Source: Echinicola arenosa (GTDB lineage: Bacteria; Bacteroidota; Bacteroidia; Cytophagales; Cyclobacteriaceae). From it: a DNA stretch of 64,000 nt. The DNA is taken from the NCBI RefSeq assembly GCF_014841125.1, contig NZ_JACYTQ010000007.1, positions 203,257 through 267,256 of the forward strand, written 5' to 3'. Shown in pieces: positions 1 to 38,013 of the stretch (position 1 is the first letter of the stretch; each line of letters starts with the position of its first letter). The translations under genes and the position numbers were made by a program. The notes under the pieces are model-generated. The model worked only from the letters and a program-made list of their open reading frames with translations. It was not told the origin of the DNA and ran no database searches.

Positions 1-323
1 TTTTGATCCGGGGCGACAATAGCTCCGGGCATATTTCCCCCAGCGGCGTTGATGAGCACATCAATTTTTCCAAAATCTCTCTCCACCTGTTCCCTGGCTT
101 TCATAAGCGCTTCCTCATTGGTTACATCTGACACCAAAGGAGAAGCTTGTCCTCCATTTTCATTGATATGGGTAACCAGGTCTTTTACCTTATTTGGATT
201 TCTTCCCAAAACAATGACTTTGGCACCTTCTTCTGCTAGGTAAGTGGTGATTTGACTGCCAAGAACTCCTGTGGAGCCACTGATTAATATAATTTTGTCT
301 TTTACAGAAAATAGATCAGACAT
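1..323 (-). CDS. SDR-family oxidoreductase, N-terminal part (gene continues beyond window start); possibly UxuB-like D-mannonate/fructuronate oxidoreductase
   Basis: Reverse-strand translation from the ATG at 321-323 gives MSDLFSVKDKIILISGSTGVLGSQITTYLAEEGAKVIV... with the SDR Rossmann TGxxxGxG motif. It sits immediately upstream of uxaC in the same orientation. The UxuB assignment is inference from context. Confidence 0.6.
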   Translation of the reverse strand, partial: MSDLFSVKDKIILISGSTGVLGSQITTYLAEEGAKVIVLGRNPNKVKDLVTHINENGGQASPLVSDVTNEEALMKAREQVERDFGKIDVLINAAGGNMPGAIVAPDQ

Positions 324-22748: not shown

Positions 22749-23554
22749 AATTCTTTTATTGATTTGTTAATGATTTCGTCTTCACCAATTCGGATTTTAC
22801 TGAGGATTTGATAAAGCAATTCACCACTATTTCCCAATAACCTGATGACCAATGCGGATTGATTGAGAACAGAGATCCCAAATTCAATTTCTTTAACTCC
22901 TTCCAAAATTTGAGCAAAACTGGCCTTTTTAAGGTTTACATCTGCATTTGGTGTTATATAGAGTAGACAACCTTGATGGGTGAAGCCTTCATATAGCCCC
23001 ATATCTTGAACGTTTATTTTTTCAGGCATTAGGTAAAGGTTGTCTTTGAATATTAACCTTCCATCAACATACACTTGTGTGATGGCGTGATATTTGGTGA
23101 AAGTAAATTCTTCATTTTGATCCATGAATTTTCGGCCACAGGTAAGAATTTCTCCCCAGACCAAGGTACTGCTAGGTTTCAGATAAATGGTGTTTTCAGT
23201 TTTGTAATTGGCTCCCTTGTGGGGTACAGTGGGGTGGGGGACATAGCTAAAATAGGCTTCTTTTCCCACTTTTACATTCATTTTTTGAGTAGTACCCTTT
23301 TTAGAAACATAAATTCTTTGATAGGACTGTGTTTGAAGGTTAAGGGCGGAATGGTCGATTACCTCGATATTGATATCGTAATGATCATCATTGAGCATGC
23401 CTGGGGAAGAACTCATGACCATCACCTCAAGCAGTAAATCTTTCTTATTCTCCCTTACTTCCACCAGGTTAAAAGGAGGCGTAAAGTAAACGTCTTTAAG
23501 TATTGTATGCTGACGAAGTCCAGTTTTGAGATGATATTTTTCCATTAGCGCCAT
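22733..23554 (-). CDS. ureD: urease accessory protein UreD (UreH)
   Basis: Position after ureG in the ureABCEFGD order; 270-290 aa. Start set at the internal Met (MALMEKY...) to avoid a 60-nt overlap with ureG. Confidence 0.65.
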
Positions 23555-24189
23555 AGTTCTGGTTCCACAGCATTTTCCTCGATCAAAGCATAACGCTGGA
23601 TCCATTGAATAATACTGTCCAAACCTGTGTCATTCATGAGGTTGGTAAAAACGAAAGGCTGTCCATTTCTCATTTTGCGGGAGTCATTTTCCATTACTTC
23701 CAAATTGGCATGAACCATAGCCGCCAAATCAATTTTATTGATGACCAAGAGGTCTGATCGGGTAATGCCCGGCCCTCCTTTTCTCGGGATTTTTTCCCCT
23801 TCAGCCACTGAGATGACAAAGATGGTGACATCAGCCAAATCTGGGCTGAAAGTAGCAGATAGGTTGTCTCCTCCGCTTTCAATAAATATTATTTCTACAT
23901 CAGGATGTCTGCTAACCATTTCATCTACTGCTTCCAAGTTCATGCTAGCGTCTTCTCGTATAGCTGTATGAGGACAGCCTCCAGTTTCTACACCAATGAT
24001 TCGGTCTTCTGGTAACAGGGAGTTTGTGGTCAAATAAAGGGCGTCTTCTTTGGTGTAAATATCATTGGTGATGACACCTATGCTGTAACCTTTGGCCATT
24101 CTTCTGGACAGCCTTTCGATTAAAGCAGTCTTTCCAGACCCAACTGGGCCTGCTATACCAATTTTAATGTATTTTCTTTCTTCTTTCAT
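23545..24189 (-). CDS. ureG: urease accessory GTPase UreG
   Basis: P-loop [20 protein letters not shown] metal motif (GGCPHTAI). Start chosen at [15 protein letters not shown]; the longer ORF uses a non-ATG start. Confidence 0.9.
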
Positions 24190-24199
24190 AGCTAAATGA

Positions 24200-24925
24200 T
24201 TAAGACATGTAAAGCCTTGAATATAGGTTTTCATGCTGCATACTTCTGATATCAAAAGCAGGGTTACAAAGACCCAGCATTTCAAGATCAAGGTTCAGAA
24301 TATCCTTGGTAACTTCCTGGATCATGGTGTGGGTACCGAAAAGAATTCTTTGTCCATCCATTTGTCCTAAAGGAACCAGCTTAACCGCATTGGTCATCAT
24401 GGCTACTGTGGCATTGTAAAGGAATGAAGCTATGGCATCTTGCATTGGAATTTCTAACAGAGCAGTGATCAGCCCATATACCACAGGAAAATACCCATAT
24501 GCGGACTTTTCTTTGACTTGGTGCTGGAACTCCTCAAGAAGGGAGGAGTCAATAAATTCAATATAGATTTTTAATAGCCTTGTCCCCATCTTTACACTTG
24601 CCTCTCTGATTTCCATAGGGGATTTCAGTGCATGACTTTCAATATCCAAAGCGACCAGTTTCTCAATGTCTTTGGCAGAAGTATATGCATGGGCTAGACT
24701 TACCAAGAAGCCATCATTGTATTTGTAGTTGTTTTCTAGCATGGCTTTGATGAACTTTATGGTGCTTTGGACATCTTTGACCAGACCTTGCTGCACGTAA
24801 GTCTCCAGTCCATTGGAGTGAGAAAAGCCACCAACAGGCAGCGTTGGATCCGCGATATGCAGAATATGAAGCAATTGACCACCCGAATGGGTATAAGTTA
24901 AATTTTTATTTTTCTTGATGCCCAT
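24200..24925 (-). CDS. ureF: urease accessory protein UreF
   Basis: 241 aa helical protein between ureE and ureG. Confidence 0.7.
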
Positions 24926-24929
24926 TAGG

Positions 24930-25433
24930 TTATTCTTTAGTGGTCAATTCCAGAATCTTGGAGAAAAGGGATCCTCCTTGCTTGCCATGGGAATGATCCA
25001 CATTGGCTTTTAGCATGTTCAATAGTTTGCAATGGGTTTTAGTAACTTGATATCCTGTGGCAATCAGCAATCTCTCAAGTGGTTTTTCGTACGGAACCAA
25101 TACTTTATCATCCTGAATAAAGAGTGGTAAATGCTTATTGCCTATTTCATAGCAAATGGTACCCATTTCATACATTGACCTCGGGGTGATCTCAATGGCA
25201 TCACAAGGTGAAATACTAACTACGATCAATTTGGTCTCATCCTCAAAAAGAATGTCACCTTCCAAAAGTCGGCTGCCTTCTCTGAGGAATTTTATAGCCA
25301 CCTCAGTGCCTGTGTCAGTTGTTTTGCGCAAAATACGTTTTGGGGCTTCAAACCATTCCAATTTTAATTCTTCGACCTTTTTGTTGTCAATGGGATATGA
25401 GGAAAGATTGCCTAAGACTTGTTTGCAGATCAT
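24930..25433 (-). CDS. ureE: urease accessory protein UreE (Ni metallochaperone)
   Basis: 167 aa with a His-containing C-terminus (NVDHSHGKQ), between ureC and ureF. Confidence 0.7.
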   Translation of the reverse strand: MICKQVLGNLSSYPIDNKKVEELKLEWFEAPKRILRKTTDTGTEVAIKFLREGSRLLEGDILFEDETKLIVVSISPCDAIEITPRSMYEMGTICYEIGNKHLPLFIQDDKVLVPYEKPLERLLIATGYQVTKTHCKLLNMLKANVDHSHGKQGGSLFSKILELTTKE

Positions 25434-25457
25434 ATTTAGGGATTGGGTGATATGATA

Positions 25458-27185
25458 TCAAAATAGGAAATAACGTTGTGCCAGAGGGAGTACTTCTAAA
25501 GGTTCACAAGTAATTACCTTACCCTCAACGGAAACTTCATAGTTTTCTGGATTGACTTCTATAACCGGGGTCTTGTCGTTATGGATCAGGTCTTTTTTTC
25601 CAATGTTTCTACAACCCTCTACGGGCACAACCTCTTTTTTTAACCCATATTTTTCTTTGATGTTGTTTTCCAATCCTGCTTTAGAGATGAAAGTGACAGA
25701 GGTTTTTTCAAGGGCGCTGCCATGGGCTCCAAACATATTCCGCATGATTACAGGTTGAGGGGTAGGGATGGAGGCGTTGGGGTCTCCCATTTTGCTGGCG
25801 GTGATCATTCCACCCTTAATTACCATTTCTGGTTTTGCCCCAAAGAAAGCAGGCTTCCACAGTACCAGGTCAGCTATCTTTCCCGATTCTATGGAACCGA
25901 CATGTTTAGCGATTCCATGAGAAATAGCGGGGTTGATGGTGTATTTGGCAATGTATCTTTTGACCCTGAAGTTGTCCGCTTGAAGCTCTCGGTCTTCAGG
26001 AAGGAAACCTTGTTGAATTTTGTTTTTATGTGCAGTTTGCCAGGTTCTGGTAATGACTTCACCCACTCTGCCCATGGCCTGAGAATCAGAACTCATCATA
26101 CTGAATACGCCCATATCATGGAGGATGTCCTCCGCTGCGATGGTCTCCTTTCGAATTCTTGAGTCTGCAAAGGCAACATCTTCCGGGATAGATTTGCTCA
26201 AATGATGACAGACCATCAACATGTCTAAATGCTCATCAATGGTGTTTTTGGTGTACGGACGGGTAGGGTTGGTCGAGCTGGGTAATACATTGGGAAATGA
26301 AGATATTTTAATGATGTCCGGAGCATGCCCCCCACCGGCCCCTTCAGTATGGAAGGTATGGATGGTTCTTCCTTTAATGGCATTTACAGTATCCTCAAGA
26401 AAACCAGCTTCATTAAGGGTGTCTGTATGGATAGCAATTTGCACATCGAATTCATCTGCTACTTTCAGTGAAGCATCTATCACAGCAGGCGTCGCGCCCC
26501 AATCTTCATGGATTTTAAGTCCGAGAGCTCCGGCTTCTACCTGCTCTTTGAGTGGGGCTAGGGTACTGCAATTTCCTTTTCCAAAAAATCCCAAATTCAT
26601 AGGGTAATGGTCGGCTGCTTCCAGCATTTTTTGGATATTCCATGCTCCAGGTGTGACGGTGGTGGCATTGGTGCCATCGGCAGGGCCAGTACCTCCGCCG
26701 ATCATGGTAGTGATGCCGCTAAACAGTGCATGTTCTATTTGTTGGGGACAAATAAAATGGATATGAGCATCTATTCCTCCTGGAGTCAGGATATGTCCTG
26801 CTCCGGAGTGAACCTCGGTTGAAGCTCCTATGATCAAGTCAGAATGCACTCCGGACATGGTGTCTGGGTTACCAGCTTTTCCTACACCGACTATTTTACC
26901 ATCCTTGATCCCTACATCTCCTTTTACTATTCCCCAATGGTCAATGATGATGACATTAAGAATGACAAAATCCAATACGCCTTCATTTCGAATATTGGTA
27001 GAGGCTTGAGACATTCCGTCACGTACGGTTTTTCCTCCTCCAAACATACTTTCTTCACCATAATGTTCGCTGTTGAAGTCTTTTTCGATTTCAATAAATA
27101 ATTCTGTATCCCCTAGTCTTATTTTGTCACCTGCCGTTGGGCCATAGATATTGGCATATTTAATCCTCTTGACTTTAAAGCTCAT
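25458..27185 (-). CDS. ureC: urease alpha subunit
   Basis: 575 aa; [32 protein letters not shown]...; active-site region MVCHHL... Confidence 0.95.
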
Positions 27186-27556
27186 ACATTTTCAGTTTTA
27201 AAATTTTTTGATTTGATTTTTTGCATGGCTTTGTCAAGGCTATTGGAAGATTGGGTGTCTCCTTGGGTAAGGTTATTGGCACCATAGGCCTTTTGAGCAC
27301 CGCTAAGTGGGATTAAGCTTACTTCAGTGCTTTCACCTGGCTCAAACCGTCTTGCTGTTCCTGCCAGGATATCCATGCGTTTTCCAAATGCTTTTGAACG
27401 ATCAAATGAAATGGCTTTGTTGACTTCAAAGAAATGAAAGTGCGAGCCAACCTGGATGGGGCGATCACCAGTGTTGGTGACTTCTATTGAAATGCTTGTA
27501 TGCTGGGCATTACAGACTATAGGTTCATCTTTTAAGATATATTCTCCTGGTATCAT
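27182..27556 (-). CDS. ureB: urease beta subunit
   Basis: 124 aa [17 protein letters not shown]... Confidence 0.9.
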
Positions 27557-27578
27557 GGTGTTGTGATTTGTGTGGTTT

Positions 27579-27881
27579 TTAGCGGATAGGATTGTGTACG
27601 GTCACCAGTTTAGTTCCATCTGGGAAGGTAGCTTCAATTTGTACATCATGGATCATTTCTGCTACCCCTTCCATTACATCTTCCTTCGTGAGAAAGGTGG
27701 CTCCAATCTGCATGAGTTCTGCAACAGACTTTCCATCTCGAGCCATTTCGTGCAATCGTGCACTTATGAGCGCAATGGACTCAGGATAGTTTAATTTTAC
27801 ACCTCTGGCTTTTCTTTTTTCAGCCAATTCACCGGCAAGGAAGAGCATGAGTTTTTCAGTTTCTCTGGGGGTGAGCTTCAT
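27579..27881 (-). CDS. ureA: urease gamma subunit
   Basis: 100 aa [34 protein letters not shown]... Confidence 0.9.
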
Positions 27882-28103
27882 AAAATATTAAAAGTTTAAT
27901 GGATATAGTATTAGTAGTACTAGGTTAATACTATTAAGATAATCCTAATTTGGGAACTAAGGAAATGTGTAACTGTGGAAAAATGGTAGAAAACAAAATG
28001 GATAATTCGTTAATCTTACACAAAAAAGTAAAAAGGGGGCGAATAAGCTGTTCTTTTTTGAAAAAGGATGATCAGAAAGGGGATAGTAGGTTAGGAGTTG
28101 TTG

Positions 28104-28856
28104 CTACAACTTCTTTTTTAACTTCATAAACTCCTGTTCCAAAAAAGCTAACTTTTCTTCGATTTCTACATTACTTTCAAGGGCTTTTTTGGCAAAGGTG
28201 AATTTGATGAGCCACAGTTCTTTAATCTCAGATAAGTTGAGGTATAAATCATCTATATTTCTATTGGCTGCCCTTAAAGTAACTGTGTTGCCAGAAAGAA
28301 AAAATTTCCTTAAGACCAATTGACTACTAGTGACAATCAGAACCAATTCGCCATTTTCTATTTTATGATAATCTTCATGATCAACGAACTCACCTAGGAC
28401 CATGTCTTTTGGTAGCAAACCTTTATCATGGTTGGTCATCTCAAGATTGGAAATAATATACCCTCGATATCTTTTGGTATCAGTAATGGGAACTTGGATG
28501 ACAGGCAAATCTTCGATGAAGTGCGGTTTGTCATGGAATTTGATATAATCTACTTCATTGTTGGAGGTGATGCAAGGGATTTTTGGGAAGCTGTCCTTTT
28601 GATTGATTCCGTGCAAGGTGAGGTCCCCTTTGAATTTCAGTAGTTTGTTGACGGTAAGCTCAGTAGTCAATAGATCATCAATAGATATGCTAAAGTAATT
28701 AGCAATTTTGATGATTGTTTCTAATTTTGGTTCGCTTCTACCTTCTTCATATGCACCCAAAGTGCCTCTTTTTAATTCGAAAAGCTCAGCGAAAGCTTGT
28801 TGGCTAAGCTTTTTAACATTTCTGATTTTCCTAATATTTTTACCAAAATTTGACAT
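28104..28856 (-). CDS. XRE-family HTH regulator with C-terminal LexA/S24-like (or cI-like) domain; putative repressor of the divergent psp-flotillin operon
   Basis: N-terminal HTH IRKIRNVKKLSQQAFAELFELKRGTLGAYEEGRSEPKLETIIKIANYFSISIDDL. ~250 aa with a beta-rich C-terminal half, divergent from the 29118-33044 operon. The catalytic Ser/Lys dyad was not confidently identified. Confidence 0.55.
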   Translation of the reverse strand: MSNFGKNIRKIRNVKKLSQQAFAELFELKRGTLGAYEEGRSEPKLETIIKIANYFSISIDDLLTTELTVNKLLKFKGDLTLHGINQKDSFPKIPCITSNNEVDYIKFHDKPHFIEDLPVIQVPITDTKRYRGYIISNLEMTNHDKGLLPKDMVLGEFVDHEDYHKIENGELVLIVTSSQLVLRKFFLSGNTVTLRAANRNIDDLYLNLSEIKELWLIKFTFAKKALESNVEIEEKLAFLEQEFMKLKKKL

Positions 28857-28885
28857 TTATTGCTAAAATAATTTGCATATAAAAA

Positions 28886-28900
28886 TCTATTGCGTATATT
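28886..28900. promoter_or_regulatory. candidate operator half-site (TATACGCAATA-like, inverted relative to the 29075-29093 site)
   Basis: CTATTGCGTATAT is the reverse-complement-like partner of TATACGCGAATA, 180 bp away in the divergent promoter region. Confidence 0.2.
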
Positions 28901-29074
28901 TATCTAACAATATTAGCGAATTGTATCGGTAAATACTAATGTGTTTAACAGTAAAATGAATTTTGAGCCAGTTTTTTGTATTTGTGCTAACAAAATTAGA
29001 TAGCGTAATGGGGTTAGATTTAATTTGTTAGTTATAGAGTACTTGAAAAGGACTTAAAATAGCCAGATTTTCGT

Positions 29075-29093
29075 ATTATTATACGCGAATAAT
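29075..29093. promoter_or_regulatory. candidate operator: inverted repeat ATTAT-ACGCGA-ATAAT immediately upstream of the psp-flotillin operon
   Basis: TATTATACGCGAATAAT, ~25 nt upstream of the ATG at 29118. Confidence 0.25.
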
Positions 29094-29117
29094 TTTATCA
29101 ACTTAAATCATTTTGAA

Positions 29118-29513
29118 ATGAAAGATCACTTTCAGATAACAAAAGACTTTTTACTTGAACTTAATTTTGATGTTGTCTTCGAAAATAAGGATGAAGGAAT
29201 ATTGATGGTTCATAAGGAGAATTTTGGTATAAAGAATTTAATCCTCGGTGTAGCCCCACCAATTTTAATAATGGAGCAGTTTCTTTTTAAGATCAATAAT
29301 CAATCTGATAAGATATATAAGAACCTACTCCAAAAGAACAGGGATATCATTCATGGTGCTTTTGTTTTAGATGAGTCAGGTAAAAAGGTGATTTTCAGGG
29401 ATACATTGCAGATTGAAAATATGGACCTAAATGAACTTGAAGGGTCACTGAATAGCCTGAGTTTATTAATGAGTGAGTATTCAGAACAAATAATTGAGTT
29501 TTCTAAATATTAA
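29118..29513 (+). CDS. small cytoplasmic protein, possibly YbjN/T3SS-chaperone-like fold; first gene of the psp-flotillin operon
   Basis: 131 aa, acidic, mixed alpha/beta composition, 12 nt upstream of pspA. The family assignment is a guess from size and composition. Confidence 0.45.
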   Translation: MKDHFQITKDFLLELNFDVVFENKDEGILMVHKENFGIKNLILGVAPPILIMEQFLFKINNQSDKIYKNLLQKNRDIIHGAFVLDESGKKVIFRDTLQIENMDLNELEGSLNSLSLLMSEYSEQIIEFSKY

Positions 29514-29524
29514 ATATTAATGAC

Positions 29525-30241
29525 ATGAACATTTTTAAACGATTATTCAAAATAGGAGAGGCTGAAGCCAATGCAGCCATTGATAAAATGGAAGACCCTA
29601 TCAAGTTGACGGAGCAAGGAATCCGTGATCTTAGAGAGGACCTCAACAAAAATATGGAAGCCCTTGCCCAAGTAAAAGCTTTGGCCATTAGAGCAAAGAA
29701 TGACCAAGAGGGCTATATAGAAAAGAAAGAGGATTATCATAATAAGGCGGTGCTGATCCTGAAAAAGGTTCAACAGGGAAGTATGGATGCGACAGAGGGA
29801 GACAGACTTGCTAAAGAAGCGTTGTTGAAGAAAGAGGAGATGCAGCAGCATGTTGCCAGGACTGAAGGGGAGGCGAACAAATTCAATGACAATGTGGCTC
29901 AACTTGAAAAAAACATTCAAACTATCAAATCCAGTATTGGCAATTGGGAGAATGAGCTCAGTACTTTGAAGGCAAGGGTAAAGGTCAGTAAGGCCACCAA
30001 AAGTCTGAATAAGCAAATGGCCGAAATTGATAGCAGCAGCACTGTTTCCATGCTTGAAAGAATGAAGGAAAAGGTTGCCCAAGAAGAAGCGCTGGCTGAA
30101 GCTTATGGTGAAATTGCTGGAGCTTCTAAAACGATCGATGATGAATTGGAAAAAGCCGCAAGTTCTTCAGAAGTCAAAGCAGAGGATGACTTGAGCAAAC
30201 TTAAAAATCAATTGGGGTTTAACGAAGATAAAAATACCTGA
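29525..30241 (+). CDS. pspA: PspA/IM30/Vipp1-family protein (bacterial ESCRT-III superfamily)
   Basis: MNIFKRLFKIGEAEANAAIDKMEDPIKLTEQGIRDLREDLNKNMEALAQVKA... aligns by eye with the E. coli PspA N-terminus ([40 protein letters not shown]...). 238 aa, all-helical. Confidence 0.85.
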   Translation: MNIFKRLFKIGEAEANAAIDKMEDPIKLTEQGIRDLREDLNKNMEALAQVKALAIRAKNDQEGYIEKKEDYHNKAVLILKKVQQGSMDATEGDRLAKEALLKKEEMQQHVARTEGEANKFNDNVAQLEKNIQTIKSSIGNWENELSTLKARVKVSKATKSLNKQMAEIDSSSTVSMLERMKEKVAQEEALAEAYGEIAGASKTIDDELEKAASSSEVKAEDDLSKLKNQLGFNEDKNT

Positions 30242-30243
30242 TC

Positions 30244-30942
30244 TTGGATAGTTTAATTAACATCATCTTTTCTCAGGTCAACATAACCTTGACCATTTTC
30301 CTTATTTTACTGGTAGTGTATTGGTTATTGACCATGATCAGTGGAATTGACTTTGAACTGGACGTAGAGATCGATGTGGATGTTGATACTGGAGTGGATG
30401 TAGATGGAGGAGGCACTGAGTTTCAGGATATATCCAATGCAGAAATCCATAAAGACGAGGTGGTAGGCAAACGGATACAACCACTAAAATGGTGGCAGAT
30501 CTTTTTGATTTACTTCAATTTTGTGGGTTTGCCTTTTATGTTTACCCTTACCTGTTTTGTGTTTATCTGGTGGTTCAGTACCGTCCTGCTTACTGCAGTC
30601 ACAGTATCTTATGAGAATGTATTTGGTTTTGGGATTCTGATCGTGACCTTTTTTGCTTCATTGATCCTTACCAAAATCTTTACGACTCCATTCAAAGGAT
30701 TCTTTAAACACTTGAACAAGGATGGGGACAAGGCCAATGACTTTATAGGAAGACAAGGAATATTGCTTTCTTCCATATCAGGAAATAAAATGGGAAATGC
30801 AGAAGTTCATATCAATGGAGATTCGATGTCCATTTATGTCAAATCATTGAATGGAGATGCATTGAATTATCAAGACAGAATACTAATTATCAAGCAATCT
30901 GCTGACAAAAACTATTTTTTAGTTCAATCATATAACGACTAA
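30244..30942 (+). CDS. NfeD-like membrane protein (YqiJ/YuaF/YdjH-like) with acidic repeat linker and C-terminal OB-fold
   Basis: N-terminal TM helix, an acidic DFELDVEIDVDVDTGVDVDGGG tract, two or three more TM helices, and a C-terminal beta-rich domain (GRQGILLSSISGNKMGNAEVHINGDSMSIYVKSL) resembling the NfeD OB domain. Sits 3 nt after pspA and 15 nt before the flotillin gene. Confidence 0.55.
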   Translation: MDSLINIIFSQVNITLTIFLILLVVYWLLTMISGIDFELDVEIDVDVDTGVDVDGGGTEFQDISNAEIHKDEVVGKRIQPLKWWQIFLIYFNFVGLPFMFTLTCFVFIWWFSTVLLTAVTVSYENVFGFGILIVTFFASLILTKIFTTPFKGFFKHLNKDGDKANDFIGRQGILLSSISGNKMGNAEVHINGDSMSIYVKSLNGDALNYQDRILIIKQSADKNYFLVQSYND

Positions 30943-30956
30943 ACTATTTTATCAAA

Positions 30957-33044
30957 ATGAATCATTTAATACCAATTATCGGGATTGGATTAGGGGGAGT
31001 ATTGTTCCTAATCGTAGTATATTTCATCATTATAGCGATGTTTTATCGGAAGGTTCCACAAGGCCGGGCAATTATTAGAACTGGTTTTGGCGGGACTAAG
31101 GTGGCCACTGACAAGGGGCTCTATGTGATACCTGTTTTCCATAAGGTGGAGATCATGGATATTTCAGTCAAAAAGATCCAAATTGAGCGTTTGGCCCATG
31201 AGGGATTGATCTGTAAGGACAATATGCGGGCAGATATCAAGGTAGCTTTCTTTGTTCGGGTAAACAATGATGTGGCCTTTATCAAAAGAGTGGCCCAAAC
31301 AATTGGGGTAGACAGGGCTTCCAGGATTGAAACTTTGGAAGACCTATTCGAAGCGAAGTTTTCTGAAGCACTCAAGACTGTTGGTAAGAAGTTCCAGTTT
31401 ATAGAGCTTTATGAGGCGAGAAGGGAGTTTAGGGATGAAATTGTGGACATCATAGGTACAGATTTGAATGGTTATACCTTGGAGGATTGTGCCATTGACT
31501 TTTTGGAACAAACGCCTATTAGCCATTTAAAACCAGACAACATTCTGGATGCAGAGGGGATCAAGAAAATCACTGAGCTTACAGCTGTTCAAAATATGAA
31601 AGCCAACCTGATTAAACGGGATGAGCAAAAAACCATAAGAAAGCAGGATGTGGAAGCTAGAGAGGCGATTTTGGAATTGGATAAGCAACTTGCTGAAAAA
31701 GAGGAACAACAAAGACGAGAGATTGCGAATATCAAAGCCCGTGAATCTGCTGAGATCAGTAAAGTCGCAGAAGAAGAAAGATTAAAGTCTGAATCGGCAC
31801 GAATTGCTACGGAAGAAAAAGTGAGGGTGGCTGAAGAGAATATGGCCCGTCAGGTGATTGTAGCGGCCAAAAACAAGGAGCGTACAGATGCTGTGGAGAC
31901 AGAAAGAGTGGAAAAAGACAGAATGCTTGAAGCCACAGAGAGAGAGCGTATTGTAACTCTTGCACAAATTGAGAAAGAGAAAGTAGTAGAAGTAGAGAAA
32001 AAGAATATCCAAGATGTGATCAGGGATCGCGTGATGCTAGAAAAAGGAGTGGTTGAAGAGCAGGAGAACATGAAAGATATTCAGGAATTCAAGACTGCCG
32101 AGCGTGAGAAGCAAGTGAGAATTACTATTGCTGAGGCCAATGCGCAAGAAGAATTGATCAAAACGATCAAAGCAGCAGAGGCTCAAAAAGAAGCAGCAAA
32201 ATCCAAAGCGGAAGAAATCAATATTGAGGCGCAAGCTAAGAAAGAAGCCAGTGAAAAAGAAGCAGAAGCTAGGAAGACCATTGCCGATGCCAAAGCGAAG
32301 GAAGAAGCAATTATTGGTATGTCAGAAGCCCAAGTAATGCATGCGAAGGCTGATGCCAGTGAAAGACAAGGTGTCGTAGAAGCGTTGATCATAGAGAAGA
32401 AAGCCAGGGCTGAAGCGGCTGGAATAGAAGCCAAAGCAAATGCAAACCTTAAAGAAGGGGAGTCTGAAGCAGAGGTGATCAAGAAGAAAGCCTTAGCTGA
32501 TGCTGCTGGAATCGAAGAAAAAGCGGCAGCGATGAAGAAGCTGGATGGGGTAGGTAAGGAGCATGAGGAATTCAAGCTTCGTCTGGATAAGGAATTGCAG
32601 GTAGACCTTGCCAATATCAATATTCAAAGAGATATCGCCGATGCCCAAGCGCAGGTGATCAGTGATGCCCTTAAAGCAGCCAAAATTGATATTGTGGGTG
32701 GAGAAACCATGTTCTTTGACCAGATAATTGGACAGATTACCAGAGGAAAAGGTTTTGATAGGCTTGTCCAGAACAGTAGTAATATCCAAGAAATCAAAGA
32801 GTCTATCTTAGGGGATGATTATGCCAAAGGAAACCTTTTGGAAAAAGTAAGGAATTTCTCCAAGAAGTATGGTATTTCTTCCGAAGACTTGAAAAACTTC
32901 ACTATTGCCAATCTATTGATCGAACTCCAGGAGCGGTCAAAGGATAAGGATGAGCAAAGTATGCTTGGCAACCTATTCAATATAGCCAAGAGCTTAGGGC
33001 TTTCTGATCAGAAAATTTCTGGTTTGAATAATAAAATGGTGTAA
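30957..33044 (+). CDS. flotillin/SPFH (band-7) family protein, YqiK/FloT/YdjI-like, with a long E/A/K-rich coiled coil
   Basis: N-terminal TM plus SPFH domain (YRKVPQGRAIIRTGFGGTKVATDKGLYVIPVFHKVEIMDISVKKIQI...), then ~350 aa of EA-repeat coiled coil. 695 aa. Confidence 0.85.
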   Translation: MNHLIPIIGIGLGGVLFLIVVYFIIIAMFYRKVPQGRAIIRTGFGGTKVATDKGLYVIPVFHKVEIMDISVKKIQIERLAHEGLICKDNMRADIKVAFFVRVNNDVAFIKRVAQTIGVDRASRIETLEDLFEAKFSEALKTVGKKFQFIELYEARREFRDEIVDIIGTDLNGYTLEDCAIDFLEQTPISHLKPDNILDAEGIKKITELTAVQNMKANLIKRDEQKTIRKQDVEAREAILELDKQLAEKEEQQRREIANIKARESAEISKVAEEERLKSESARIATEEKVRVAEENMARQVIVAAKNKERTDAVETERVEKDRMLEATERERIVTLAQIEKEKVVEVEKKNIQDVIRDRVMLEKGVVEEQENMKDIQEFKTAEREKQVRITIAEANAQEELIKTIKAAEAQKEAAKSKAEEINIEAQAKKEASEKEAEARKTIADAKAKEEAIIGMSEAQVMHAKADASERQGVVEALIIEKKARAEAAGIEAKANANLKEGESEAEVIKKKALADAAGIEEKAAAMKKLDGVGKEHEEFKLRLDKELQVDLANINIQRDIADAQAQVISDALKAAKIDIVGGETMFFDQIIGQITRGKGFDRLVQNSSNIQEIKESILGDDYAKGNLLEKVRNFSKKYGISSEDLKNFTIANLLIELQERSKDKDEQSMLGNLFNIAKSLGLSDQKISGLNNKMV

Positions 33045-33049
33045 TGCTT

Positions 33050-33085
33050 AAGGCTGCCACCTTTCGGCAGCCTTATTTTTTTTTT
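33050..33085 (+). terminator. rho-independent terminator after the flotillin gene
   Basis: AAGGCTGCC-ACCTTTC-GGCAGCCTT followed by T11. Confidence 0.7.
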
Positions 33086-33144
33086 GCAGGGGGAGTGCTA
33101 TACACAAGTCACATTCCCAAATAATAATCAAGATTGATTAAGAA

Positions 33145-36100
33145 ATGAAGCAAGACGATCAAAGCACGGTAAATAAAGATGCATTGGATGGTGGAACCTA
33201 TGAAATTATCCGTAAAAGGCTGGAAGGTCATAAGGATGATTTACAGATGAGATTACATCAGTTAAATGAATCTCGAAAAGGGGTATTTGGCTCCCTGGAG
33301 ACCAAGTTAATAGCTAATAATAGGGTCAGTACAGAAAATAACTGTGTGGCCAGAGATATTATTTCTTTGGGCAATACTTGTATTTTTGGTTATAATGTCC
33401 ACTTTGGCTTACGAACTGATATTAAGCTATCTGATGTATTTAGTATTTACCAGTTTGATGAGAATAGGTTTGAGCAAGTATCGCTCGGTTTGATTGAAGA
33501 GGATGCCTTTGTAAATGACTTTTCCAACCTCTACAAGTACTATCGGAATACTATTTTTTCCAAGTTTACCATAATAGGCAATTACCTTTATATGGTTTTT
33601 CAGCTTAGTGAGAGCGTCACAGATATCAAAACTTTTAAGTGGTTGATTGCTGATAAGAAATTAAAGTATATCGATAACCGGAGTGATCATGAGTATAAGT
33701 TTCCCAAGCAGCATCAATTCAGTTGGCAAGAAGCCACAAGGGATATGCAGCGGTATGGGAAGCACTCTCATGTTTCCATTATGGATAAGGTTTTTGTGGA
33801 GACCATTGGAGGGGATTTGACCATCAAAATCGAGGACAATACCGATGATGGTATGGGAATTTATTCCGAGCCAGTTGACTACAGAGATCAAACTTTGGAT
33901 GATGGACAAATCAGGTTTGCGGATTTGGGCAATTTGATTGTTTTGGAGATCAAACCATTTCAGGAAAGGGCACGCTATTTTGTGTACAACCATAAAATGC
34001 AGGAAGTCCAAAAAATTGACTCTATAAAAGACGCAGCCGTATTATTGCCAGATGATCAGGGAATCATATTTCCCAATGGATATTATTTGCAAACGGGGGA
34101 ATATCATGTTTTTAATAATGATGTCGACCAACTTAAGTTTGTTGGGGCTGTGGCTTCTCCAAATGGGGAGGATTATCTATATAAGTTTTATGCTTCCGAA
34201 AAGGGAACTTATGTTCTTATGGATTACAATGTCATAGAACAGGAAATAAAAACACCTATTGTTTGTGGTGGTTTTACCATCCTTCCCAATGGGGAATTGT
34301 GTTACTTCAAAGCAGAGGACGAGCAGACAAAGCACCATATGATGCAGATATGGCAAACTTCCTACCTGGAAGGAGATATTTTGCCGTCGGAACATCAAGA
34401 TACTCTTTTGTATAAAATCGGTAACAAGGACATCGTTAAAGCCATGGCCGAATCTCATGAGCTGATCATTCTCCTCAATAAAGAAGATAACTATGATGGC
34501 CTTTATACAGATGTGGCCAAGCTTTCAAAGGATATTTTAGATGCTTACTATTGGCTTCATGAAGTTGAAGCGGGACAATTGAGTAAGCCTTTAAAGGCTA
34601 TTAATGAAGCGGCCAATGCAGCTATCGATGAATTCCAAAAGGTAGTCCAACTCAAAAAGAATGCTGCAGGCAGTACCAAAGAAATCCAAGATAAATCCCA
34701 GACACTTTTTAATAAAATTAAGGGTACTTCATTTAGGAGCATTGATGAATTTGTGGATTTGCTTGGTCAACTGAGATCCATAAGGGGAGAGGTGATAAGT
34801 CTTTATGAGATAAGGTATATAGATGAGTCATTGCTTAGATCCTTGGAGGAAGAAATAGCCCATCATACCAATAAAATTTCAAGAAGGTGTGTGGCGTTTT
34901 TATTGGATGAAAAAGCGCTTCTGCCTTATCATGGCAAAGTCACTGAGAAGCAACAACATCTTGAGCAGGTCACCAAGGTTGTTGAGGCGAAACAGCTGGA
35001 AGAAGAGGTCAATCAGGTGGCGAAAGACTTGGAAATGTTGATTGATATTGTCTCTAACTTGGAGATTGAAGATACTTCACATTCTACTAAAATCATTGAT
35101 AATATTTCACTGATTTTTGCCACTATTAACCAGTTAAAGGCTGCGATTAAGAATAAGGGAAAGCTTCTGGGCAGCAAAGAGGCAAAGGCTGATTTTGCCG
35201 CTCAGTTAAAGCTGATTGACCAGAGCATTATCAATTACTTGGATATTGCTGCTACTCCTGAAAAGTGTGATGAATTCTTGACAAAAGTAGGCGTTCAGCT
35301 GGAAGAGATCGAAGGGAAATTTGCTGATTACGAGGATTTTGTTTCGGATATTATTGAAAAGAGGGAAGAGGTATACAATGCTTTTGAAAGCAAAAAGGGA
35401 GCGATTACCGAAAAGAGACATAAAAAGGCCATAGCTCTTAAATCAGCCTCAGAGCGGATCCTTAAGAGCATTGGAAAAAAAGCAGAAAGCTTAAAGTCTG
35501 CGGATGAAATCAACGGGTATTTTGCCGCAGATATAATGGTGTCCAAATTAAGGGACATTATTGAGCAACTTAGAGAGCTAGATGACAGCGGAAATGCGGA
35601 GGAAATAGAAACATCTCTGAAGACCAGTAAAGAGGATGCGCTTAGAAAGTTAAAAGATAAACTTGATCTCTATGAAGATGGGGAAAATATTATCAAGTTA
35701 GGCAAGCATAAGTTTGGAGTGAACCGTCAAGAGCTGGATTTAACGATAGTTACCAAAGATAAAAATCTTTGCTATCATCTCAGTGGGACTGATTTCTACC
35801 ACGAACTTCATCATGAAGTTTTGGATAAGAGCCAAAAGTACTGGAGCCAGGAGTTCGTATCAGAAAATGAAGAAGTTTATAGGAGTTCCTATTTAGCTTA
35901 TAAGGTATATATGGATAAAGATCCTTTGGAACTAGCCCGATTGGATGTAGCCGAATTATTGAAAGTAATTCAAGAGGAGAGCAGTAGCAACTATTCGGAA
36001 GGTTATGTAAAAGGGGTTCATGATGAAGATGCCGCTGCAATTCTGAAGATGCTTGTACAAAAGCATGAAGAGTTGAAGATATTGACTTATCCATCCACCG

Positions 36101-38013
36101 TCCGGGCCTATGCCCAATTTTTCTGGTTTAGCTTGGAAAAGAATGAGCAAGAGGCTTTAAATCATTCCATTAAAGCTTCTGGTTTAGTCCTGAAGTTTTT
36201 TCCTTCATCGAAGGAATATGACTTTTTGATCGAAGAGTTAGAAGAGTCCATTGCAAAATATGGTGAAGCTTCAGGTCTATTTACAAGCTTTAAAGCCAAT
36301 GCCATTGCGCATTATTTGTTTGATGAACTCCAAAGCGATGATCATTTTGCTCTTAGTAGCAGCGCTGCGAAAATTGTAGAGGGATTCAAGCAGATGCTGG
36401 TTAAGGAAAAAGCCCAGGATCAATTTCACCATAATTTGGAAAAACTGGTTAGCCTTTCGTCAAAAGTGAAGCTTTACAGGCAGTGGTTAAAGGCTTTCGT
36501 AAAGGTAAGTCAAGGTACGGATGACTTAGAGTATATTGATGAAGCCGTTTGTGTTTTGCTCTTGCAGGAAGGCAAAAGAAACCTGATTTCGGCTAGCCCG
36601 TTTGCAAAAATCCAAGGCCTAAAAGGGGAGCATAACACTATCAATCATGGAGAGATGAATTTCAATTACCATGATTTCAGTGCACTTTTGGATCATTTTG
36701 TCAATCAGGAAGTGGTGGCATTTAATGCTTATCGAAAGGCCAAGCATCAAGTAACAGAGGAGCTTAAAGATCAGCTGAAATTGGAGGAGTTTAAGCCTAG
36801 AGTATTGACCTCATTTGTTAGAAATAAACTTATCGATCAAGTTTACTTTCCATTGTTTGGAGAAAATTTGGCCAAACAATTAGGTAGTGTGGGGGATAAT
36901 AAAAGAACGGATAGAATGGGGATGTTGCTCTTAATCTCGCCTCCCGGTTATGGCAAGACTACTCTAATGGAATATATATCCAATCGGTTGGGATTGGTTT
37001 TTATGAAAATCAATGGTCCGGCAATCGGGCATGAAGTTACCTCAGTAGACCCTGCTTCAGCCACCAATTCTGCCGCGAGGGAAGAGTTGAAAAAACTCAA
37101 TCTGGCTTTTGAGATGGGCAATAATGTGATGCTTTATTTGGATGATATCCAGCACTGTAATCCTGAGTTTTTACAAAAATTCATCTCCTTGTCCGATGGT
37201 ACTCGGAAGATTGAAGGGGTTTTTAACGGAAAGCCCAAGACCTATGATCTTAGAGGGAAGAAGTTCTGCGTGATCATGGCTGGAAATCCTTACACGGAAA
37301 GCGGTGAGAAATTCAAGATTCCTGACATGCTGGCAAATAGGGCTGATATCTACAACTTGGGGGATATCATTGGGGATACAGCCAGTTTGTTTAAGCTAAG
37401 TTTGATTGAGAATGCACTTACATCCAATGCTGTTTTGCATCAGCTAAGCAGCAAAAACTTTGAAGATGTCTATACTTTAATCAATAGAGTGGAGAACAAT
37501 GCGGAAAATGGAGAGCTTAAAGGTAATCATACGACACAAGAAGTTCAGGATTATGAAGCTGTACTTAGAAAGGTGTTGAATATCAGGAACACAGTTTTGA
37601 AAGTAAATGAGACTTATATCAAGTCTGCAGGTATGGAAGATGAGTACCGTACAGAACCATCATTTAAGTTGCAGGGCTCTTACCGGGATATGAATAAGCT
37701 GGTGGCCAAAGTGGTGCCGATTATGAATGAAGCAGAGCTAGATGGATTGTTGCTTTCACACTATGAAAATGAGTCTCAGACCTTGACAGCGGCAGCAGAA
37801 GCCAATCTACTAAAATACAAAGAACTGAGAGGAATGCTTAGCTCAGAGGAAGAAGAAAGGTGGAAATCCATCAAAACTACCTTTGCAAAAAACAACAAGT
37901 TAAAAGGCTTTGGGAATAAAAATGAGATGGCCCAAGTGCTTTCTCAAATGATGGCTTTTAGCGAAAATCTAGAAGGAATAAAGGCAGTTCTTCAAAAAGG
38001 CTTTGAAAAGTAA
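33145..38013 (+). CDS. giant (1622 aa) uncharacterised protein with C-terminal MoxR/AAA_5-type ATPase module. An N-terminal globular region and a ~750-aa helical/coiled-coil middle have no recognisable family.
   Basis: Walker A ISPPGYGKTT (nt 36940-36963); Walker B VMLYLDDIQH (37129-37152). Sensor/Arg region CVIMAGNPYTESGEKFKIPDMLANRADIY matches the AAA_5/MoxR pattern NP..E.G...lp.al.nRF. Uninterrupted ORF with a strong terminator after it. Confidence 0.8.
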   Translation: MKQDDQSTVNKDALDGGTYEIIRKRLEGHKDDLQMRLHQLNESRKGVFGSLETKLIANNRVSTENNCVARDIISLGNTCIFGYNVHFGLRTDIKLSDVFSIYQFDENRFEQVSLGLIEEDAFVNDFSNLYKYYRNTIFSKFTIIGNYLYMVFQLSESVTDIKTFKWLIADKKLKYIDNRSDHEYKFPKQHQFSWQEATRDMQRYGKHSHVSIMDKVFVETIGGDLTIKIEDNTDDGMGIYSEPVDYRDQTLDDGQIRFADLGNLIVLEIKPFQERARYFVYNHKMQEVQKIDSIKDAAVLLPDDQGIIFPNGYYLQTGEYHVFNNDVDQLKFVGAVASPNGEDYLYKFYASEKGTYVLMDYNVIEQEIKTPIVCGGFTILPNGELCYFKAEDEQTKHHMMQIWQTSYLEGDILPSEHQDTLLYKIGNKDIVKAMAESHELIILLNKEDNYDGLYTDVAKLSKDILDAYYWLHEVEAGQLSKPLKAINEAANAAIDEFQKVVQLKKNAAGSTKEIQDKSQTLFNKIKGTSFRSIDEFVDLLGQLRSIRGEVISLYEIRYIDESLLRSLEEEIAHHTNKISRRCVAFLLDEKALLPYHGKVTEKQQHLEQVTKVVEAKQLEEEVNQVAKDLEMLIDIVSNLEIEDTSHSTKIIDNISLIFATINQLKAAIKNKGKLLGSKEAKADFAAQLKLIDQSIINYLDIAATPEKCDEFLTKVGVQLEEIEGKFADYEDFVSDIIEKREEVYNAFESKKGAITEKRHKKAIALKSASERILKSIGKKAESLKSADEINGYFAADIMVSKLRDIIEQLRELDDSGNAEEIETSLKTSKEDALRKLKDKLDLYEDGENIIKLGKHKFGVNRQELDLTIVTKDKNLCYHLSGTDFYHELHHEVLDKSQKYWSQEFVSENEEVYRSSYLAYKVYMDKDPLELARLDVAELLKVIQEESSSNYSEGYVKGVHDEDAAAILKMLVQKHEELKILTYPSTVRAYAQFFWFSLEKNEQEALNHSIKASGLVLKFFPSSKEYDFLIEELEESIAKYGEASGLFTSFKANAIAHYLFDELQSDDHFALSSSAAKIVEGFKQMLVKEKAQDQFHHNLEKLVSLSSKVKLYRQWLKAFVKVSQGTDDLEYIDEAVCVLLLQEGKRNLISASPFAKIQGLKGEHNTINHGEMNFNYHDFSALLDHFVNQEVVAFNAYRKAKHQVTEELKDQLKLEEFKPRVLTSFVRNKLIDQVYFPLFGENLAKQLGSVGDNKRTDRMGMLLLISPPGYGKTTLMEYISNRLGLVFMKINGPAIGHEVTSVDPASATNSAAREELKKLNLAFEMGNNVMLYLDDIQHCNPEFLQKFISLSDGTRKIEGVFNGKPKTYDLRGKKFCVIMAGNPYTESGEKFKIPDMLANRADIYNLGDIIGDTASLFKLSLIENALTSNAVLHQLSSKNFEDVYTLINRVENNAENGELKGNHTTQEVQDYEAVLRKVLNIRNTVLKVNETYIKSAGMEDEYRTEPSFKLQGSYRDMNKLVAKVVPIMNEAELDGLLLSHYENESQTLTAAAEANLLKYKELRGMLSSEEEERWKSIKTTFAKNNKLKGFGNKNEMAQVLSQMMAFSENLEGIKAVLQKGFEK

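Follow-up and report, generated by a model that had tools for sequence, protein, structure and literature searches.

The window analysed here is a stretch of 64,000 nucleotides from Echinicola arenosa (contig NZ_JACYTQ010000007.1, positions 203,257 to 267,256 of the forward strand), in which a gene encoding a 250-residue transcriptional regulator lies divergent from an operon that encodes a CesT/Tir-like chaperone, PspA, two proteins with membrane or coiled-coil segments and a large AAA+ ATPase. The coordinates of the genes, of the candidate operators and of the other features of the intergenic region are collected in Table 1. The regulator had been described in an initial annotation, made from the DNA letters and a list of open reading frames (ORFs), as a self-cleaving repressor of the cI/LexA type that answers DNA damage or infection, and the present analysis concerns its family membership, its catalytic residues, its probable binding sites and its target operon.

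Table 1. Features of the regulator locus (positions in the window; operator positions are counted from the regulator ATG, and mismatches are to GCTAA-N5-TTAGC)
Feature	Position	Strand	Description
Regulator gene	28104-28856	-	250 aa; XRE helix-turn-helix (HTH), residues 3-72; flexible/disordered linker, 78-87; S24-like beta domain, 92-221; C-terminal helix, 230-249
Intragenic candidate operator, GCTAAAGTAATTAGC	28689-28703		Perfect; centred at +160; codons Ala52-Asn-Tyr-Phe-Ser56 of the HTH domain; perfect 15-mer at +160..169 in 78/81 loci
Divergent intergenic region	28857-29117		261 nt
Candidate operator -13, GCTAAAATAATTTGC	28862-28876		1 mismatch; abuts the regulator start codon; at most 1 mismatch in 80/81 loci
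Initially proposed inverted copy, CTATTGCGTATAT	28887-28899		Part of a moderately conserved stretch, ttattgTAtatTTAc, that separates operators -13 and -54
Candidate operator -54, TCTAACAATATTAGC	28903-28917		1 mismatch, core CTAACAATATTAG perfect; in the most conserved intergenic block; 77/81 loci
Candidate operator position -86, ACTAATGTGTTTAAC	28935-28949		2 mismatches; matches in 20 loci
Distal candidate operator -137, GCTAACAAAATTAGA	28986-29000		1 mismatch, core perfect; operon side; at -137/-147 in 44 loci
Micro-ORF remnant	29008-29031	+	7 codons, MGLDLIC; hydrophobic micro-ORF intact in flavobacterial relatives
Conserved box, TTTTCGTATTATT	29068-29080	+	Family consensus TTTTYGTAWTATT; 76/80 loci
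Initially proposed palindrome, ATTATTATACGCGAATAAT	29075-29093		ATTATT-ATACGCG-AATAAT (ATTATT-N7-AATAAT); right half not conserved
Weak operator-like site, GCGAATAATTTTATC	29085-29099		2 mismatches; overlaps the initially proposed palindrome
CesT/Tir-like chaperone gene	29118-29513	+	PF22550, E 3e-55; first gene of the divergent operon
PspA/IM30 gene	29525-30241	+	PF04012, E 3e-42
Membrane protein gene	30244-30942	+	232 aa; place in the operon that of the YqiJ/YuaF-like protein with three transmembrane (TM) segments in the operon passages of Ravi et al. 2024 (PMC11237479)
TM and coiled-coil protein gene	30957-33044	+	695 aa; place in the operon that of the band-7/flotillin protein in the same passages (PMC11237479)
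AAA+ ATPase gene	33145-38013	+	1622 aa; DUF3686, DUF7902 and AAA+; last gene of the operon

The regulator and its S24-like domain

The HTH_3 profile (PF01381) matched residues 8-62 of the regulator with an E value of 4.4e-12 and 46.3 bits, above the gathering cutoff of 23. The Peptidase_S24 profile (PF00717) was matched by 24 of 31 regulator family members and in part by the window regulator, whose residues 157-208 aligned with profile positions 56-105 of 116 at 20.5 bits, just under the gathering score of 23.3. An AlphaFold2 model, for which the 31 family members served as input, consisted of a helical HTH domain, a linker, a beta-rich domain and a terminal helix (predicted local distance difference test score, 82). 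Foldseek comparison of this model with the PDB returned T. maritima LexA (3k2z) as the best match (E 2e-8), together with full-length lambda cI (3bdn), 186 CI and many E. coli LexA C-terminal domains. Judged from the model, the C-terminus is an S24 beta-fold of the LexA/cI type. The XRE HTH and the long beta-rich, cI/LexA-like C-terminus that the initial annotation had read in the 250-residue protein were thus both borne out, and the peptidase fold, on whose presence that reading depended, was found with its catalytic residues gone. The nearest homologue is from Echinicola sp. 20G (98% identity), followed by relatives of 55-67% identity, every one of them from Flavobacteriaceae (Zunongwangia, Aquimarina, Tenacibaculum and Dokdonia).

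The signatures of self-cleavage in LexA are the nucleophile Ser119 (G-x-S-M), the general base Lys156 and an Ala-Gly (or Cys-Gly) scissile bond. When the Ser/Lys dyad was sought by alignment with E. coli LexA, UmuD and lambda cI, MAFFT and hhalign agreed in placing Glu139 (N-L-E-M) in the column of Ser119 and Arg183 in that of Lys156. The same placements were obtained by hhalign against 20 relatives of the Ser/Lys type, and this alignment paired the A-G-Y of those relatives with V102-D103-Y104, in agreement with a manual alignment to the P. russatus C-terminal domain. An earlier placement of the Ala-Gly bond at Cys95-Ile96, obtained by hhalign against E. coli LexA, UmuD and cI alone (probability 2.4%), was superseded by the far stronger alignment at Val102-Asp103.

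The replacements extend through the family. In the alignment of 31 members, position 139 was Glu in 30, position 183 was Arg in all 31 and position 103 was Asp or Glu in 30, and 116 of the 120 closest family members carried an NLEM or SLEM motif. When the C-terminal 163 residues were used as query in an exhaustive HMMER search, 117 cluster representatives were returned, mostly of about 250 residues and of a common architecture. Among the 88 of these that were aligned, the Ser and Lys columns co-varied (29 sequences had Glu/Arg and 27 had Ser/Lys, and few pairs were mixed), and the canonical G-D-S-M, V-K-R and A-G-Y motifs were present in the Ser/Lys-type members. By alignment, therefore, the C-terminal domain of the regulator is an S24 pseudo-peptidase in which all three cleavage signatures have been replaced. 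Because the signatures are replaced and the Glu/Arg and Ser/Lys pairs co-vary across the wider family, RecA-stimulated self-cleavage triggered by DNA damage, as the initial annotation had envisaged it, is not supported for this regulator.

The architecture of the regulator is that of the non-canonical LexA proteins of Bacteroidetes, in which a penta-helical XRE HTH is followed by a linker, an S24-fold domain and a terminal alpha-helix (Sanchez-Osuna et al. 2021, PMC8565304). The hhalign comparison of the window family with the 20 Ser/Lys-type relatives, which match published C-terminal sequences of the non-canonical LexA family (PMC8565304), had a probability of 100% and an E value of 3.2e-41 over 243 columns, the terminal helix included. 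Furthermore, orthologues of the window regulator from Z. profunda (WP_013071519.1), Dokdonia (WP_013749942.1) and Aquimarina AD10 (WP_066317457.1) appear in Table S9 of the same paper, a list of BLASTP homologues of SOS regulators. The box CTAA-N5-TTAG is that of the non-canonical LexA of Pontibacter actiniarum (WP_025606010.1), established by electrophoretic mobility shift assay and mutagenesis. Cytophagales carry genuine LexA of this CTAA-N5-TTAG type, and Flavobacteriaceae often have homologues of both ortholog groups, with their SOS regulon under a LexA that recognizes GGA-N5-TCC (PMC8565304).

The window regulator shares with this family the HTH, the S24 fold, the terminal helix, homology over its full length and, at its own promoter, CTAA-N5-TTAG boxes, of which those at 28904-28916 and 28987-28999 have a perfect core; it lacks the conserved S24 signature residues. 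On these sequence features it is a member of the CTAA-N5-TTAG group of the non-canonical LexA family without catalytic residues. A tblastn search with the Pontibacter LexA C-terminal domain found no second LexA-like gene in the 64-kb window. The alignment of catalytic residues in PMC8565304 comprises G-D-S-M sequences only, the present clade not being among them, and PspA receives no mention in that paper. A search of the literature available to the analysis found no paper on a PspA-linked LexA paralogue or on the induction of this operon in flavobacteria, and the loss of catalysis and the partnership with PspA in this clade appear not to have been described before.

The divergent PspA operon

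Eighty related loci were fetched and their divergent intergenic regions were extracted, which together with the window gave 81 sequences and 1.0 Mb. The regulator gene was divergent from a CesT/Tir-like gene (PF22550) in all 80, and nearly all of these loci continue with pspA and with genes for a membrane protein, a flotillin-like protein and a DUF3686 AAA+ ATPase. No SOS genes adjoined the regulator in any of the 80. An operon type that combines CesT/Tir and PspA with band-7/flotillin, AAA+ and YqiJ/YuaF proteins has been described (Ravi et al. 2024, PMC11237479), and the gene set and gene order of the window operon (29118-38013) are exactly those given for it in the operon passages of that paper. 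No cognate transcription factor is named for the operon type in those relevant passages, and the S24-like XRE regulator would fill this gap. Searches of Pfam and NCBIfam at E <= 0.1 gave no match for the 232-residue membrane protein or for the 695-residue coiled-coil protein.

The proposal that the regulator gates a prophage, defence or toxin module is not supported by the content of the operon, which consists of genes for CesT-like, PspA, YqiJ-like, flotillin-like and DUF3686 AAA+ proteins. PADLOC returned generic HTH matches for the regulator only and none for the five operon proteins, and no prophage, toxin or defence module is present at the locus, so that the neighbouring defence or toxin genes of a defence or toxin-antitoxin regulator are lacking.

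Three distant relatives of the Glu/Arg type, whose C-terminal domains are 24-32% identical to that of the window regulator, are likewise divergent from CesT_Tir_1/PspA genes (3/3), and the two Ser/Lys-type relatives examined are not beside PspA (2/2). The distant Glu/Arg-type regulators (L081-L083, L084 and L087) span three operon types, namely the CesT-like/PspA dyad alone, the flotillin/AAA+ type and a polyamine type; the first adjoins clpP-clpX, and the last is a DUF4178/DUF350/spermine-synthase operon. The presence of such regulators at three CesT-like/PspA operon types argues that the link between regulator and PspA is older than any single one of them.

Between the window and Zunongwangia (Flavobacteriales, L001-L005), identity is 70-88% for the operon proteins and only 61-67% for the regulator, with the host, Echinicola, belonging to the Cytophagales; this suggests horizontal transfer of the locus. 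In the profile of guanine and cytosine content, no anomaly pointing to transfer was seen. The genes that follow directly downstream of the regulator, on the minus strand at 23545-27881, form an unrelated urease cluster (ureA, ureB, ureC and accessory-like ORFs, recognized by eye from the translations).

Candidate operators and other intergenic features

The motif CTAA-N5-TTAG was strongly concentrated in the divergent intergenic regions, with 139 copies in 24 kb of intergenic DNA as against about 130 in the remaining approximately 970 kb of the loci. When the 81 sequences were scanned for the 15-bp palindrome GCTAA-N5-TTAGC, perfect or with one mismatch, and the sites were mapped from the regulator ATG, they fell at five fixed positions, four upstream of the gene and one within it (Table 1). 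The site at -86 is better in Tenacibaculum, Dokdonia and Leeuwenhoekiella than in the window. The distal operator, which lies about 40-58 nt before the ATG of a micro-ORF in many relatives, probably overlaps the operon promoter. In the intergenic array, the centre-to-centre spacings were 41, 32 and 51 bp (93 bp in Aquimarina), which is near whole helical turns.

Within the window itself, eight sites with at most two mismatches lie within about 410 bp, as against about 0.15 expected from the rest of the window, and the only two exact matches to CTAACAAWATTAG in the 64 kb are both in this intergenic region, 83 bp apart. Three of the eight (28803, 28830 and 29085) are weaker and peculiar to the window. 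Other 15-mers with one mismatch (19357, 21426, 43008 and 55299) are isolated singletons, those at 19357 and 43008 within long ORFs, and were treated as chance occurrences.

Two of the distant relatives provide a comparison. In L081, which has the same HTH, the boxes are kept at -13, -56 and +160, and in L084, which has a diverged HTH, the CTAA-N5-TTAG boxes are missing; this contrast indicates that the boxes follow the cognate regulator. The recognition region of L084 (5772-6000) reads DISRTSVGAYEDERAEP, and upstream of its gene are two copies each of ATTGTCA and TTACAA, repeats that may be a diverged operator.

The operator within the regulator gene could be recognized from its codons. Codons 52-56 encode Ala-Asn-Tyr/His-Phe-Ser in the relatives, and all 71 loci that read ANYFS use GCT-AAY-TAY-TTT-AGC. 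In 79 aligned genes the codon of Ala52 was GCT and that of Phe55 was TTT in 100%, and that of Ser56 was AGC in 96%, as against 30-80% of sequences for the commonest codon of other invariant residues in the HTH domain; the third base of the Asn53 codon, which falls in the operator spacer, is free to vary. This constraint on synonymous codons among proteins of 50-60% identity indicates that the intragenic site is held by selection on the DNA itself. An operator placed in the codons of the regulator's own DNA-binding domain is unusual, and it is visible only through such a constraint.

The initial annotation had placed the operators elsewhere, at a palindrome and an inverted copy of it with the sequence TATACGC(G)AATA. 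Both strings exist, with the reservation that the rendering of 29075-29093 had dropped three bases, and the reverse complement of CTATTGCGTATAT matches TATACGCGAATA (29080-29091) at 11 positions with a one-base gap. As operators the pair did not hold up: an equally good gapped inverted pair occurred in 640 of 2000 simulated intergenic regions (first-order Markov model of the same composition), even the closest relatives, those from Zunongwangia, do not keep the ACGCGAATAAT half of the palindrome, and the conserved GCTAA-N5-TTAGC sites lie at other coordinates. The truly conserved part of the palindrome is its left edge only, where it overlaps the TTTTYGTAWTATT box.

The very strongly conserved TTTTYGTAWTATT box is distinct from the CTAA-type operators and might be an element of a promoter, or else a signal for processing or for attenuation. 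It is found 33-148 nt ahead of the cesT start, often after an A-run able to pair with its T-run. Its interpretation as a -10 element of the extracytoplasmic function type, as a palindrome or as the tail of a terminator was rejected by eye, no consistent -35 element, palindrome or GC-rich stem being found across genera. In the window, its frequency was not above chance (6 matches as against 3.85 expected).

A hydrophobic micro-ORF of 12-24 codons is located just upstream of cesT in nearly all flavobacterial relatives (L001-L080). The Aquimarina-type micro-ORF has 23 codons (MIxxxxY[IL]ANLAVDIVEKLxxFL) and occurs in 36 distinct DNA versions with length and frame fixed, and its variability by codon position (3 > 1 > 2) is coding-like.

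An Rfam scan of 27800-29600 found no RNA family. A scan for promoters of the sigma-70 type gave 6 matches as against 3.4 +/- 1.7 expected, and no terminator-like sites were found in the promoter/terminator scan. For the Bacteroidetes -7 motif TAnnTTTG, only matches with one mismatch were found in the 80 intergenic regions, in several conserved AT-rich blocks.

Regulation of the operon and comparison with known systems

We consider it likely, from the sequence comparisons above, that the regulator is an autoregulated, non-proteolytic repressor of the LexA family that acts on a PspA/flotillin/AAA+ envelope-stress operon, and that it is probably a copy of LexA repurposed from DNA damage to envelope stress. 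The initial annotation's view of an autoregulated protein tied to the divergent operon is very probably right, given the synteny in 80 of 80 loci and the conserved operators around the start codon.

The regulator would bind as a dimer to the 15-bp GCTAA-N5-TTAGC palindromes. Its binding of the boxes is suggested by the homology of the family, by the co-variation seen between L081 and L084 and by the situation in Flavobacteriaceae, where this paralogue would be the CTAA-group protein because the GGA-N5-TCC LexA controls the SOS regulon. Five positioned sites would be available to it: the intragenic site at +160, those at -13 and -54 at its own start codon and promoter region, and those at -86 and -137 facing the operon. 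The near-helical spacing of the array suggests cooperative, cI-like binding to several sites through the S24-like domain. The boxes at its own start and presumed promoter, together with the strong intragenic box, would provide negative autoregulation, and the operon-side boxes would most likely mediate repression of the operon that encodes the CesT-like, PspA, YqiJ-like, flotillin-like and AAA+ proteins. Repression rather than activation is suggested by analogy with the characterised relatives and by the position of the distal box before the first translated ORF in many relatives; the positions of the promoters themselves are presumed.

Because the regulator cannot, by its alignment, cleave itself, its release from DNA is expected to be non-proteolytic. 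The CesT-like chaperone or PspA may bring it about through a partner switch, or a ligand may do so in the remodelled pocket of Glu139, Arg183 and Asp103; alternatively, another protease might act in trans. PspA-PspF, PspA-ClgR and the regulatory chaperones of type III secretion are precedents for partner switching, and by analogy with them we favour a partner switch or a ligand.

Several observations weigh against this interpretation. In a pairwise alignment to T. maritima LexA, the catalytic Lys falls, through a shift of one residue, against Lys184 of the window regulator; most family members have Arg at this position, and no alignment of the regulator supplied a Ser nucleophile. The intragenic site lies 173 and 214 bp from upstream sites, distances that are not cleanly helically phased. 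Sequence scans could not place the promoters, on whose geometry relative to the operators the choice between repressor and activator depends. Envelope stress as the inducing signal is purely our inference. In addition, the host Echinicola belongs to an order with a genuine CTAA-N5-TTAG LexA, and another protein could occupy the boxes.

It is possible that the regulator acts as a repressor on its own gene and as an activator on the PspA operon, the latter from -86 and -137, in the manner of ClgR, with the TTTTYGTAWTATT box as core promoter. With the promoter at that box, the operators on the operon side would be about 95-120 bp upstream, a distance too great for occlusion of the simple kind; activation by non-canonical LexA regulators is allowed for in PMC8565304, and ClgR, as presented in passages of PMC11237479, is a Cro-like HTH regulator encoded in a psp operon. 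However, the characterised members of the non-canonical LexA family behave as repressors (PMC8565304), the stretch between the distal operator and the micro-ORF start in many relatives is a typical distance for promoter overlap, and activator-type contacts cannot be deduced from the regulator. We therefore regard activation as unlikely.

A somewhat less probable explanation would make the boxes plain SOS boxes whose main occupant is the genuine non-canonical LexA of the host, a cleavable protein; the regulator gene and the PspA operon would then belong to the SOS regulon, and the regulator would act elsewhere or through different sites. The core of the boxes is identical to validated SOS boxes, CTAACAATATTAG is among the SOS sites predicted in Sphingobacteriia and Cytophagia (PMC8565304), and the CTAA-type LexA is carried by Cytophagales. 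Nevertheless, boxes at the same positions are found in about 80 loci of Flavobacteriaceae, where the SOS regulon is under the other LexA; the boxes track the regulator gene, including the site within its coding sequence; and they are gone in the relative with a diverged HTH. Cross-talk with the genuine LexA in Echinicola is possible.

Most improbable of all is a cI/LexA-type repressor that cleaves itself on DNA damage (activated RecA) or infection, binds TATACGC(G)AATA and gates a prophage, defence or toxin module: an XRE HTH and an S24 fold are present and the quoted sequences exist, but the Ser nucleophile, the Lys base and the Ala-Gly bond are all missing, the sites are not conserved and have an equivalent pair in 32% of simulated intergenic regions, and the operon is of the PspA/flotillin/AAA+ type with only a generic HTH match in PADLOC.

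A more specific form of the repressor model, which we regard as doubtful in its entirety, would have a non-cleaving LexA paralogue hard-wired to CesT-like/PspA operons through the same box as the SOS repressor. Envelope stress would be sensed by a partner switch, in which the remodelled Glu/Arg/Asp site is the docking surface for free CesT-like chaperone or PspA, and this docking would strip the regulator from a looped operator array that includes the intragenic site, and the sharing of boxes would cross-wire the two responses in hosts with a CTAA-type LexA. If this were true, the boxes held in common with the CTAA-type LexA in hosts such as Echinicola and Tenacibaculum would couple the responses to DNA damage and to envelope stress.

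The regulator is a specific candidate, with an operator map, for the control of membrane-repair operons of the PspA/ESCRT-III type in Bacteroidetes. The coupled replacements of Ser by Glu and of Lys by Arg mark the whole clade and would make it a clean case of a pseudo-peptidase, one that appears to have kept the DNA-binding specificity of an SOS repressor while both the target and the mode of inactivation changed.

Compared with the LexA group of Pontibacter actiniarum, the window regulator has the same architecture of HTH, linker, S24 domain and terminal helix, the same dyad-spacer operator and several boxes at its own promoter. It differs from that group in having x-Asp, Glu and Arg in place of Ala-Gly, Ser and Lys, in adjoining CesT-like/PspA genes always and SOS genes never, and in holding an additional perfect operator in its own coding sequence. 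With LexA and lambda cI the regulator shares the C-terminal fold found by Foldseek, the presumed logic of a dimeric HTH repressor and several phased operators, which suggest cI-style cooperativity mediated by the C-terminal domain. Unlike these proteins, it lacks the apparatus of autoproteolysis and has an extra C-terminal helix, and its HTH is of the XRE type, whereas that of LexA is a winged helix.

Among the dedicated Psp regulators, the passages of PMC11237479 that treat them name PspF (a sigma-54 enhancer-binding protein, Proteobacteria), ClgR (a Cro-like HTH protein, Actinobacteria) and LiaRS (Firmicutes). The window regulator has no homology to these beyond the generic HTH of ClgR and is without an AAA+ or two-component module. 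It resembles them in that its gene is beside or divergent from pspA with a promoter region in common, and, by analogy, in the coupling of envelope stress to psp expression that would be expected of it.

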